From the IMG/VR virus record IMGVR_UViG_3300046047_000272: DNA of 64,000 nucleotides, one strand, 5' to 3'. Every line of letters begins with the position of its first letter. Positions within the stretch are counted from its first letter, which is position 1. The stretch comes from a virus (Duplodnaviria; Heunggongvirae; Uroviricota; Caudoviricetes). Made by a program: the position numbers. This document shows, one piece after another, positions 27,001-30,000 of the stretch.

Positions 27001-30000
27001 ACGCATGATAAGCAGAATCGTCGGCGTGATAAGGCGAATAGGATATCATATTTACGAGAGAAGTCCAGACTTAATGAGCATCAGTTGATCTTTCCTCATG
27101 AATTAACGTTGATGGTTAGATCGAATGTGATTACAAAGCATGATTTTGACGCTCCGAATTGTTGGCCTAGCGTTAAGCCATTGCAAGATGGTGGAACTGA
27201 CACCTGTATTCTCTGGCATGATGATAACAATACATACATTAAAGCGACGACATTCTATGGTGGGCAGGACATCATCAAGGATCATTATGTCATTGATATG
27301 ATAGCCAATGAAGTGTCATCTAGTCTTGATGATCCGTTCTCTATCATCCCATCAGAGTGAGATATGTAAGGTATAATGACGATTATGAGTACAATAGACA
27401 CTATTCTATCAGAGGGTGGGCTCATGATCGTCGAGTCCCCCACTAAGGCCCGTGAGATATCGGGTTTCCTTGGATCGAAATGGCGTATTATGGCCACCAA
27501 GGGTTTTATGTTCGAGTTAAAGGATCCTAAGAAGCTCTCAGCTAAGGAGAAAGCTATTTATGGATCGTATGCTATTGATGTGCATAGCGGCCAGTACGAT
27601 CGTCTACTCGATCATGACGCGTCAAATAAGGCTCAATGGCAAGAGATTAAGAAGGCTGTTGACAGTGGACGATGGAAGCACTTCTATGTGAGCACGGATC
27701 CAGATGAAGCCGGTGAGCTCATCGGATTAGAGGTCGTACGATCATTGCAGACACAATTAGATCGAGAGGGCATGGATGTCCGTAGAGCATCGTGGCATGA
27801 GATCACTAAGAAAGCCGTGTTGCAGGGATTAGAGCATCATACCACCATTGATGAGTTAAAGGCAGAGTCCTTTGAGGCGCGTCAGATCTATGATAGGTTA
27901 TTTGGTTTCAGTGTGAGTCCCTATCTTTGGAAGACGGTTCGTAGTGGTACATCTGGTGGACGAGCACAAAGCCCTGCTTTACGTCTAGTCGTAGAACGAG
28001 AAAAAGAGCGCATGGCCTTCGTCAGGAGCCCATATGGATCGATATCTGCTGTCTTCAACGAGGGTGAGGACAATGAGTTATCAGCGAATCTTATTTCATG
28101 GAATGATCAACGTGTTGCTGTCGGATCGGATTTCGACGCTCATGGAAATCTGGTGAAAAAGGATCGTATGGTCATTGGACCCGATGATGCTAAGACCATT
28201 ATCGCGGCCTTAAAGAAAAAGACGTATCGTATCACGGATATTAAGGATACACCATATACGAGGAAGCCTCCAATGCCGTACACAACGTCCTCATATCAGC
28301 AGAATGTAGGATCAATTCTTGGATTATCATCTAGCAAAGCGATGAGTATTGCTCAGAAACTCTTCGAGCATACGTATCAGACATACTCGAGAACTGATAG
28401 CCCAGCAATGGCTGATGAAGCTATTCAGGCTGCTCGTGCAACGATTGCCAAGGATTATCATAACGATATGCCATCGAATCCTATTGTATATAAGTCAAAG
28501 TCTAAGAATGCGCAAGAAGGCCATGAATGCATCAGGCCAGTAGTTGATGAACATACTGGATTATTCTATGACCCTAAGAAGATTGCATCGTTAACTAGAA
28601 GCAAGGAATTTGACGATAAAACATCGAGTGTCTATGACTTAGTGTACAGGAGATCAATAGCTAGTCAGATGAATGCAGCGAAAGGCGTCACGCGAAGAAT
28701 GACCATTACGTCTGATGACGGGAGGGCTGTATTCTCAACATCAAGTACGCGTATTGATGTTCCTGGATTCATGTCTGTGTACCGAGATAAGGAGGAAGCA
28801 TGAAGAAGACGACCACATCTAATGGATTCGATTACGATTATCAGATAGGTGAGGACATGGATTTGTCCAAGGCTCATGCAGATGAGCATGAAACGGCGCC
28901 TCCTCCGAGATTTACTGAGCCTCAGCTTGTAGCGAAGATGGAGGAACTCGGCATTGGTCGACCATCGACGTATGCTAATCTGGTAACGGTGAATCAGAAA
29001 CGAGGATACGTACAGAAGAAAGGTAAGGCCATGGCCCCTACCTGGAGTGGGATGAAGGTCGCGCAAATTCTAGAAGCGAAGATTCCAGAATTCGTTGATT
29101 ATCAATTCACGGCTAATATGGAGTCAGATTTAGACGCTATAGGATCTGGTCAATTACCAAGAAATCAATTCCTTGATGATACGTGGAAGGGTGCATCTGG
29201 TGTTGATGATCGAGTCAATGGATTAATGAAGAGTATTGATTGGGATGAGATCAATGATTTGAGTGTCATCCATCTTCAAGGTGGATATGATGTGAAGGTG
29301 TCTAAGAATGGCGCATATCTTATGGATCCATCAGGTGAGAAGGATGAACATGGATATGTGAAAAGCGTTCGTCTTGATGACGATATACTTCTAGACGAGG
29401 ATGGTCTAACGCCTGAGCGATGCGCTGAATTGCTTGCTCATCGTAAAGAGTCAGTAGAACGAGTTCTAGGTACGGTTCCTGAGGGAGATTATGCGGGTTG
29501 GAAGATGATCGCTCGTGATGGTCGATATGGTGCCTATGTGCAATTACTGAAAGTCAATAAGAAGACTGGCGACCCTGTAAAGAGCGCTAAACCGAAGAAT
29601 GTGACTATTCCTGAGAATCTCCAGGCTGATGAGACAACGATTACATATGATCAGGCTATGACGTTGATTGATAATATGCCACGTCAACTTGGTGAGGGAT
29701 TCTTTACTGGTGTTGGTAAGAGGGGCGCATGGTTGGGATGGAAGAAGACATCAAAGGGTAGAGCGTCGTTCACACCATTACCTGAAGGATATCAACAGAA
29801 AACACTGACATTAGATGAAGCTAAGACTATCTGGGAGAAGAAACCAGCTCAGAACAAGAGGCCATTTACTAAGAAACGATCTAAGTAACTCTACTAAAGT
29901 GTTTTCAACATCCATCAGTTCTATATTAGATCTAGTTAGGCTCAGAACATGAATCTTTACTCATGTTCTGAGCCTATTCTGACTGGTGCTGAGCATAAAA

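Follow-up and report, generated by a model that had tools for sequence, protein, structure and literature searches.

A phage type IA topoisomerase I encoded by two genes, with the break in a loop of domain II

Two genes and their junction

The 64,000-nucleotide stretch of viral DNA analysed here, which we call the window (IMG/VR record IMGVR_UViG_3300046047_000272, Caudoviricetes), carries a type IA topoisomerase I that is encoded by two consecutive open reading frames (ORFs) rather than one. The two ORFs and the features at their junction are listed below; lengths are given in amino acids (aa) or nucleotides (nt).

27376..28803, + strand: topA-N (ORF1), 475 aa, the gene of the N-terminal subunit, with Toprim and Topoisom_bac matches
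28800..29888, + strand: topA-C (ORF2), 362 aa, the gene of the C-terminal subunit, reading MKKTTT...RFTEPQLV...GIGRPSTYA
28788..28790, + strand: TAA stop in the ORF2 frame, which closes that frame 9 nt before the ORF2 ATG
28789..28795, + strand: Shine-Dalgarno (SD) sequence AAGGAGG for ORF2, within the last ORF1 codons (DKEEA)
28800..28803, + strand: ATGA start/stop overlap, read from the sequence, a junction of the translational-coupling type

A preliminary description of this locus had claimed two ORFs joined at an ATGA, with both frames open for about 10 nt, an in-frame TAA 9 nt upstream of the second ATG, and an AAGGAGG 6 nt before that ATG. ORF calls and the sequence agree with nearly all of this: at the junction the sequence is ...gat AAG GAG Gaa gca TGA, in which the ATG of ORF2 starts at 28800, and the two frames are simultaneously open over 28791-28800 only, which is 10 nt. 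The AAGGAGG is also present, but its spacer to the ATG is 4 nt (28796-28799) and not 6. In translation, ORF1 ends in ...PGFMSVYRDKEEA*; an alternative ATG at 27385, the one chosen by gene callers, would give it 472 aa. The complete AAGGAGG heptamer precedes only two of the 50 ORF starts in the window. Overlaps of 4 nt with the ATGA arrangement are common there, with five pairs among ORFs of at least 150 aa (the topA pair and four others). The junction is base-for-base the same in a second assembly, Logan SRR16378897, and a scan for promoters and terminators around the topoisomerase genes returned background level only. To judge from the junction, topA-N and topA-C are probably translationally coupled.

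The domain content of the two ORFs is that of a single enzyme. Against Pfam, ORF1 matched Toprim (2.7e-10) and positions 2-290 of the 411-position Topoisom_bac profile (1.1e-60), and ORF2 matched positions 299-410 of the same profile (7.7e-32) followed by Toprim_C_rpt (8.8e-14). The best sequence match is Mycobacterium smegmatis TopoI (6pcm), with which HMMER aligned ORF1 to residues 20-471 (2.5e-70) and ORF2 to residues 494-839 (1.5e-41), at about 33% identity. The earlier claim that the topoisomerase is colinear across both ORFs is borne out by these profile positions and by the 6pcm alignment, both of which run consecutively from one ORF into the other. Together, ORF1 and ORF2 are exactly colinear with an actinobacterial-type topoisomerase I, and only the peptide bond in one loop is missing.

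We assessed the invariance of catalytic residues in two alignments, one of 14 split N-halves and the other of 34 split and unsplit homologs. The codons concerned are as follows.

27433..27435, + strand: Toprim glutamate E20 (IVESPTKA), invariant in the 14 split N-halves
27697..27705, + strand: Toprim DxD codons, D108-P-D110 (STDPDEAGE), with D108 and D110 invariant in both alignments
28384..28386, + strand: catalytic tyrosine Y337 (QTYSRTDS), aligned by HMMER to YITYMRTDS of mycobacterial TopoI (6pcm)
28950..28976, + strand: GIGRPSTYA codons (ORF2 residues 51-59), the conserved domain IV (D4) helix of type IA topoisomerases

Across the 34 homologs E20 is nearly invariant, and G528, R529 and P530 (numbered on a fusion of the two ORFs) are invariant; Y337 and R339 are invariant in both alignments. 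At its C-terminal end the enzyme has Topo_C_Rpt repeats in place of zinc ribbons, with an alignment that reaches residue 839 of the M. smegmatis enzyme (MsmTOP1), that is, domains D5-D7, and with a basic tail, ...KKPAQNKRPFTKKRSK. The shortest MsmTOP1 truncation reported to relax DNA is MsmTOP1-839t (PMC7192597), so that the ORF2 alignment ends where the shortest active truncation does. No helicase module was found: the Pfam matches of ORF1 and ORF2 were confined to Toprim, Topoisom_bac and Toprim_C_rpt, and the neighbouring ORFs contained no helicase domain.

The break in the fold and among relatives

Where the cut falls was examined in an AlphaFold2 model of an artificial ORF1+ORF2 fusion, built with 33 homologs (mean predicted local distance difference test score, pLDDT, 88.2; predicted template modelling score, pTM, 0.79). 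Only one internal segment, 472-483, has a pLDDT below 50; it spans the junction (475/476), with strand 451-462 and a short helix before it and strand 494-506 after it. The four-domain toroid fold (D1-D4) is predicted to be present in the fusion: in Foldseek comparisons the model superimposed on the E. coli 67-kDa core with template modelling (TM) scores of 0.88-0.92 at 2.7-3.3 Å, and its best fold match was M. smegmatis and other mycobacterial TopoI (E down to 1.4e-59). HMMER aligned ORF2 residues 20-126 to residues 459-565 of E. coli TopA. In the E. coli 67-kDa fragment, D2 consists of residues ~216-278 and 405-472, and D4 resumes at ~473. The alignment and these domain limits therefore place the break inside the second D2 segment, before its last beta-strand, which corresponds to about residues 472-493 on the MsmTOP1 scale. 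The N subunit would thus consist of D1 (Toprim), D3 with its catalytic tyrosine, the greater part of D2 and the first portion of D4, and the C subunit would contain the last D2 beta-strand (residues ~19-31), the rest of D4 (GIGRPSTYA), the Topo_C_Rpt domains and the basic tail. Neither half is a closed fold in the model, as domains II and IV are both divided by the cut.

The same break is found in relatives of the window enzyme. The 14 closest N-half clusters, which range from 100% to 48% identity, are 453-498 aa long and all stop within a few residues of GF[LM]xVY[DE]D; at 48% identity or less, the matches are 790-832 aa long and run through a normal loop into ...LPxVxxGDxA.... On the C-terminal side, 13 clusters of 335-408 aa begin just before ...HxTxPPxRFTEPQLVAKLEELGIGRPSTYA, and the more distant C-halves P0246, P0247 and P0249, detected with HMMER among 1.84 billion representatives, begin at the same place. 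The comparison of orthologs called for by the preliminary description thus finds the split in the same loop in relatives down to 48% identity, and the uninterrupted homologs (P0015-P0033, 790-832 aa) are more distant and have an ordinary loop at the break site rather than the nucleotide context of the window. Because the same break occurs in all close relatives, it is not a chance arrangement. Other searches added no close relatives: the region had no megablast match in phage and plasmid collections, a scan of genome contigs with ORF1 gave no relative, and a scan of metagenome contigs with the N-half alignment recovered mainly cellular actinobacterial topA at 31-38% identity.

We examined the junctions in the DNA of nine relatives, whose loci were retrieved individually. 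In the window and in six of the relatives the distance from the N-half to the C-half is short (negative values are overlaps).

Window: -4 nt (ATGA)
L001: +18 nt, with GGGAGG
L084: -17 nt
L085: 0 nt
L089: +47 nt
L088: +122 nt
L086: +134 nt

The other three loci have genes inserted at the break. L092 has the N-half at 590-1996, next a gene for a 1411-aa SpaA/Big_2 surface protein (2425-6660), and after it the C-half, from 6660. A similar SpaA/Big_2 insert follows the N-half in L087 (4738-7371+), with insert sizes of 1411-1425 aa across L092 and L087. In L090 a 466-aa ORF (1816-3216) lies between the halves, overlapping the end of the N-half by 11 nt and sharing an ATGA with the start of the C-half. 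Both halves are present at every locus that can be read through; L087 ends inside the inserted gene and has the N-half only. Among the relatives the two halves stand to each other in frames 0, +1 and +2, and each C-half has its own ATG, mostly with an SD. In no lineage is either half interrupted by a stop. Nonsynonymous divergence (dN) between lineages is, for both halves, 0.16-0.64, with synonymous divergence (dS) of 1.7-4.8 or incalculable, which is saturated in all available pairs and so does not yield a proper dN/dS figure. These comparisons show that the topoisomerase is encoded by two genes with a conserved break point in a loop, and that both halves are under purifying selection.

The split forms do not make up a monophyletic group in a bootstrapped neighbor-joining (NJ) tree of the N-halves, which, like the segment trees below, was built on Kimura distances and has several weak deep nodes. 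The main split clade, P0001-P0011, has the unsplit P0015 beside or within it; P0012 and P0014 are sister to the unsplit P0017 (bootstrap 92); and P0013 is sister to the unsplit P0033 (bootstrap 98). The distant split C-halves behave similarly, with P0246 and P0247 grouping with the unsplit P0248 and P0249 falling within the P0033 group. Altogether there are at least five split lineages, each with close unsplit relatives.

The placement of P0013 depends on the part of the gene that is considered. In a sliding window, P0013 is 95-100% identical to the unsplit P0033 over aa 1-240, and from there on its nearest sequence is P0008 of the split clade. Accordingly, a tree of aa 1-230 places P0013 with P0033 (bootstrap 100) and P0015 with the split forms (bootstrap 98), and a tree of aa 270-472, the part next to the break, unites the main split clade and P0013 in a monophyletic group (bootstrap 90) without any unsplit member. 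A mosaic is also seen in DNA. Positions 50-1091 of L090 are 95.3% identical to the unsplit L093, and positions 3257-3302 are 97.8% identical to it; between these tracts lie 2165 nt in L090 versus 794 nt of the unsplit gene. The 2165-nt segment consists of the last ~245 N-half codons, the 466-aa ORF and the first ~15 C-half codons. This mosaic fits the co-converted flanks expected of homing, and ordinary recombination gives an identical pattern. At the level of sequence, these data show that the split allele moves laterally between lineages, and the L090 mosaic clearly illustrates, at that level, how a split allele has taken the place of an unsplit one. For P0012 and P0014, the unsplit P0017 is nearest along the entire N-half, from which it follows that independent splitting or refusion also occurs.

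The unsplit P0015 (L091, 3001-5460) is itself a mosaic, with ~80% identity to the split P0009 and P0010 over aa 1-210 and ~45% beyond. It shows that intragenic recombination is frequent in the gene pool of this topoisomerase, or possibly that a refusion event took place.

A probable two-subunit enzyme, its alternatives and its possible origin

In our judgement the best explanation of the locus, and one that we hold with considerable confidence, is a two-subunit topoisomerase I of a huge phage, produced from co-transcribed and translationally coupled genes. The two chains would reassemble non-covalently into the normal toroid, through completion of the beta-sheet in D2 and packing of helices in D4, and such reassembly would be possible because the cut sits in domain II, within its only disordered surface loop. 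With an SD-ATGA junction, the two chains would tend to be made in roughly equal amounts. The preliminary description had suggested a genuine two-subunit topoisomerase I or else a programmed frameshift, in either case rather than a random indel. The first of these suggestions is strongly supported by the constancy of the loop, the variability of the junctions and the whole genes that separate the halves in some relatives; the second we reject; and the dismissal of a random indel holds, given the same break in 14 N-half and 13 C-half clusters.

The variable junctions, frames and intervening genes are what exclude both a sequencing indel and conserved recoding. A one-base change near 28795-28800 would unite the two frames, as would be needed if the gene were really one ORF interrupted by a 1-nt sequencing or assembly error, but we consider the chance of such an error negligible: the junction recurs in the second assembly, the clusters with the same break come from many samples and assemblers, some relatives have spacers of up to 134 nt or entire genes between the halves, and an error would not be accompanied by an ATG, a consensus SD and a TAA that closes the frame. 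A programmed -1 frameshift or stop read-through, either of which would yield one full-length topoisomerase, is highly improbable, even though the frames overlap by 10 nt, an SD-like element lies just upstream as it does at the prfB and dnaX sites, and the halves of L001 and L085 are in frame across one stop. The 10-nt overlap contains no slippery site, with no X XXY YYZ heptamer in GGAGGAAGCA; a +1 shift like that of prfB would enter the wrong frame, as ORF2 is in the -1/+2 frame; every C-half starts with an ATG of its own, in most cases preceded by an SD; and, as the relatives differ both in frame and in distance (from -17 to +134 nt, with inserts of 1.4-4.2 kb), no conserved recoding is possible.

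Two further alternatives accept the two ORFs as real and dispute their joint function. Since a host topoisomerase I could serve the phage, loss of the phage enzyme would be tolerable, and the two pieces could be relics of a gene inactivated by a frameshift and now decaying. We find this hard to credit, as both ORFs are intact in all lineages despite saturated synonymous sites, the catalytic residues are all invariant, the break is always in one loop and not at random positions, and the junction has an optimised SD and start. The halves might instead act separately and never reassemble, the C-half as a protein binding single-stranded DNA (ssDNA) or RNA polymerase (RNAP), and the N-half as a module that nicks or cleaves. 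In bacterial TopoI the C-terminal domains do bind ssDNA by themselves (PMC7192597), and the 4.2-kb gene that holds the halves of L092 and L087 apart indicates that strict coupling is not required. Separate action is nevertheless unlikely: the N-half would be missing one D2 strand and half of D4, an orphan beta-strand opens the C-half, and neither is self-contained; the interface motifs are kept both in the N-half (GFMxVY) and in the C-half (TPPxRFTEPQL, GIGRPSTYA); and, with L087 ending inside its insert after the N-half, both halves occur at every locus that can be read through.

As to how a two-subunit topoisomerase might have come about, a parallel is offered by the genes in pieces of T4-like phages, which free-standing homing endonucleases have created. 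There, mobA splits the topoisomerase II gene 39/60 and mobE splits the nrdA of Aeh1, with products that reassemble into active enzymes, and a seg gene is associated with a split gene 43, which in phage 25 is present as 43A/43B (PMC2988022). The topoisomerase resembles these systems in being a DNA-metabolism enzyme of an essential type in a large phage, made as two polypeptides and contiguous in related genomes; in L090 only, it also resembles them in having a nuclease-like ORF at the break and a replacement tract similar to co-conversion. It differs in the enzyme, here a type IA topoisomerase, and in that the window itself is without an endonuclease. By analogy with these phages, the most likely history would be that the insertion of a free-standing endonuclease cassette created the split and that the cassette was later lost in the lineage of the window.

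The 466-aa ORF of L090 (P0241) has several traits of a homing gene: it overlaps both neighbouring genes tightly, lies beside a coding segment of high conservation and has a replacement tract on its flanks. It contains repeated CxxC zinc ribbons (DZR_2, 9.3e-12) and a C-terminal segment, ...IVIEYDGEYYHKD...ERDERN...GYIVIRMRE, with weak matches to the Vsr-like REase_MTES_1575 (6.7e-4) and to DUF559 (2e-3). Unlike known homing endonucleases of the GIY-YIG and HNH types, it combines multiple zinc ribbons with a weak Vsr/DUF559-like domain, and its homing is putative; possibly it represents a free-standing homing endonuclease of a new type. P0241 has no PHROG match and no sequence match in the PDB, and its homologs amount to two near-identical clusters and one weak match. 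When compared with P0242, which is encoded on a 216-kb contig, it is 70% identical (466 versus 411 aa), with a variable number of zinc-ribbon repeats. A scan of viral contigs with P0242 returned no locus, so that movement of ORFs of this type to other sites was not seen. The spacers of the relatives showed no significant similarity to one another.

Several observations weigh against a two-subunit enzyme of this origin. The AlphaFold2 model is of an artificial fusion and not of a complex of two chains, and both the assembly of the heterodimer and its relaxation activity are things that we infer. The Logan SRR16378897 assembly may share reads with that of the window. In L001 and L085, whose halves are in one frame with a single stop between them, occasional read-through could produce a fusion. 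With regard to the cassette, both nuclease matches of P0241 are below the Pfam cut-offs, and its assignment as a nuclease is weak; the window has no endonuclease gene at the break, where the junction is a 4-nt overlap; and no significant trace of the L090 ORF turned up in the spacers of 47-428 nt that were searched in other relatives, among them those of 122-134 nt.

A bolder possibility, which we put forward tentatively and consider doubtful, is that the D2-loop split is not a neutral scar but a state of phage topoisomerase I that arises repeatedly, is mobile and is kept up by selection. A nuclease-bearing cassette would target the conserved region coding for TPPxRFTEPQL and GIGRPSTYA and would turn unsplit alleles into split ones across phage lineages; after loss of the cassette, the split allele could be kept because it is immune to re-cleavage, or because an enzyme assembled from two chains provides the phage with a regulatable topoisomerase gate. 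Should this be true, the enzyme would be the first natural type IA topoisomerase with a toroid closed by a non-covalent seam.

The window enzyme can also be compared with other divided and undivided topoisomerases. It shares its domain order, catalytic motifs and type of C-terminal repeat with actinobacterial TopoI (6pcm, 5d5h), which however is a single polypeptide of ~930 aa; the phage enzyme is divided by the D2-loop cut into two genes and is ~33% identical to it. A natural heterodimer with the type IA module divided between its subunits is known in the reverse gyrase of Methanopyrus kandleri (RgyA/RgyB), which is active (PMC4117796, PMC8185306). It comes from an archaeal hyperthermophile and includes a helicase module; the window enzyme is without one. 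The small subunit of the M. kandleri enzyme reportedly holds the DNA-linking tyrosine (work attributed to Kozyavkin 1994 and Krah 1996). On that account its break would lie elsewhere, as the phage enzyme has Toprim and tyrosine on one subunit. In Nanoarchaeum equitans, topoisomerase I is annotated as two genes, NEQ045/NEQ324 (PMC3655853, Table 1). This is an archaeon with a reduced genome and many dispersed split genes; the gene is unsplit in the sister nanoarchaeon, and nothing points to a mobile cassette. The reverse gyrase of N. equitans is also split. Type IA function has been rebuilt in trans from fragments, namely E. coli Top67 with ZD, and the N-terminal domain with the C-terminal domain of the M. 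smegmatis enzyme. Those laboratory fragments were cut between the toroid core (D1-D4) and the C-terminal domains, while the natural cut described here is within the toroid, in D2.

A full-text literature search found no earlier account of a split phage topoisomerase IA. In a 2024 review of type IA topoisomerase diversity the words split, subunits and phage are all absent (PMC10969213). In its pertinent passages, a comparative survey of 224 jumbo phages covers type II and type IB topoisomerases with two subunits as well as several polymerases that are split, and mentions no type IA enzyme (PMC7824862). In PHROGs the topoisomerase family (phrog_13226) is listed solely as "unknown function". Both type IA topoisomerase I and split genes of phages are known, and their combination, previously undescribed in the literature searched, is moderately surprising.

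The two-subunit topoisomerase would add type IA enzymes to the split replication enzymes of large phages, which include topoisomerase II, ribonucleotide reductase, DNA polymerase and RNAP. It also bears on how type IA enzymes work. Their gate is formed by domains I-IV, which open and close, and the movement of domain II is still debated; the split shows where the toroid tolerates a break, and a D2/D4 made of two chains would be a tool with which the subunits could be labelled, mixed and mutated separately to probe the mechanics of the gate. For annotation, pairs of ~470-aa and ~360-aa "partial topoisomerase" genes in contigs of huge phages should be neither merged nor flagged as frameshift errors.

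Genome setting

The window derives from a huge phage. A C-half protein identical to that of the window is encoded on a 491-kb contig, and relatives are encoded on contigs of 350, 386 and 420 kb, one of which is an IMG/VR viral contig. The window has a G+C content of ~45% and carries a homolog of rIIA at 16720-19560 (phrog_612, 2.7e-45); rIIB adjoins the topoisomerase in one relative. A class I ribonucleotide reductase, a clamp-loader subunit and a CHAP-domain protein are also encoded in the window.

The host is probably a Gram-positive bacterium, to judge from the LPXTG pilins, the sortase and the actinobacterial type of the TopoI. The pilus module consists of a SpaA/GramPos_pilinBB pilin with an LPXTG anchor (39157-40587) and a sortase (40580-41443), with an overlap of 8 nt between the two genes, and a 1056-aa SpaA/SdrD_B protein is encoded at 281-3451. 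Sortase-dependent surface proteins encoded by a phage look unusual.

The topoisomerase region is flanked by genes for a TelA-like protein (22330-23652) and an SPFH/flotillin-like protein (31290-32699), and by two adjacent alpha-glucosyltransferase-like ORFs (47162-49942; phrog_2888) with a possible role in DNA hypermodification. Elsewhere in the window, a TnpB-like ORF (3834-5294; Cas12f1-like TNB domain, 1.6e-16) is overlapped at its 3' end by a 270-aa ORF (5143-5955). A T4 Rnl1-type RNA ligase fused to a P-loop kinase domain (7157-8632) and a protein with kinase and calcineurin-like phosphoesterase domains (44103-45365) together resemble the Pnkp/Rnl tRNA-repair pair. An array of seven tRNA genes (Pro-CGG, Pro-TGG, Asn, Lys-CTT, Lys-TTT, His and Leu-TAA) occupies 61736-63931, at the right end of the window.

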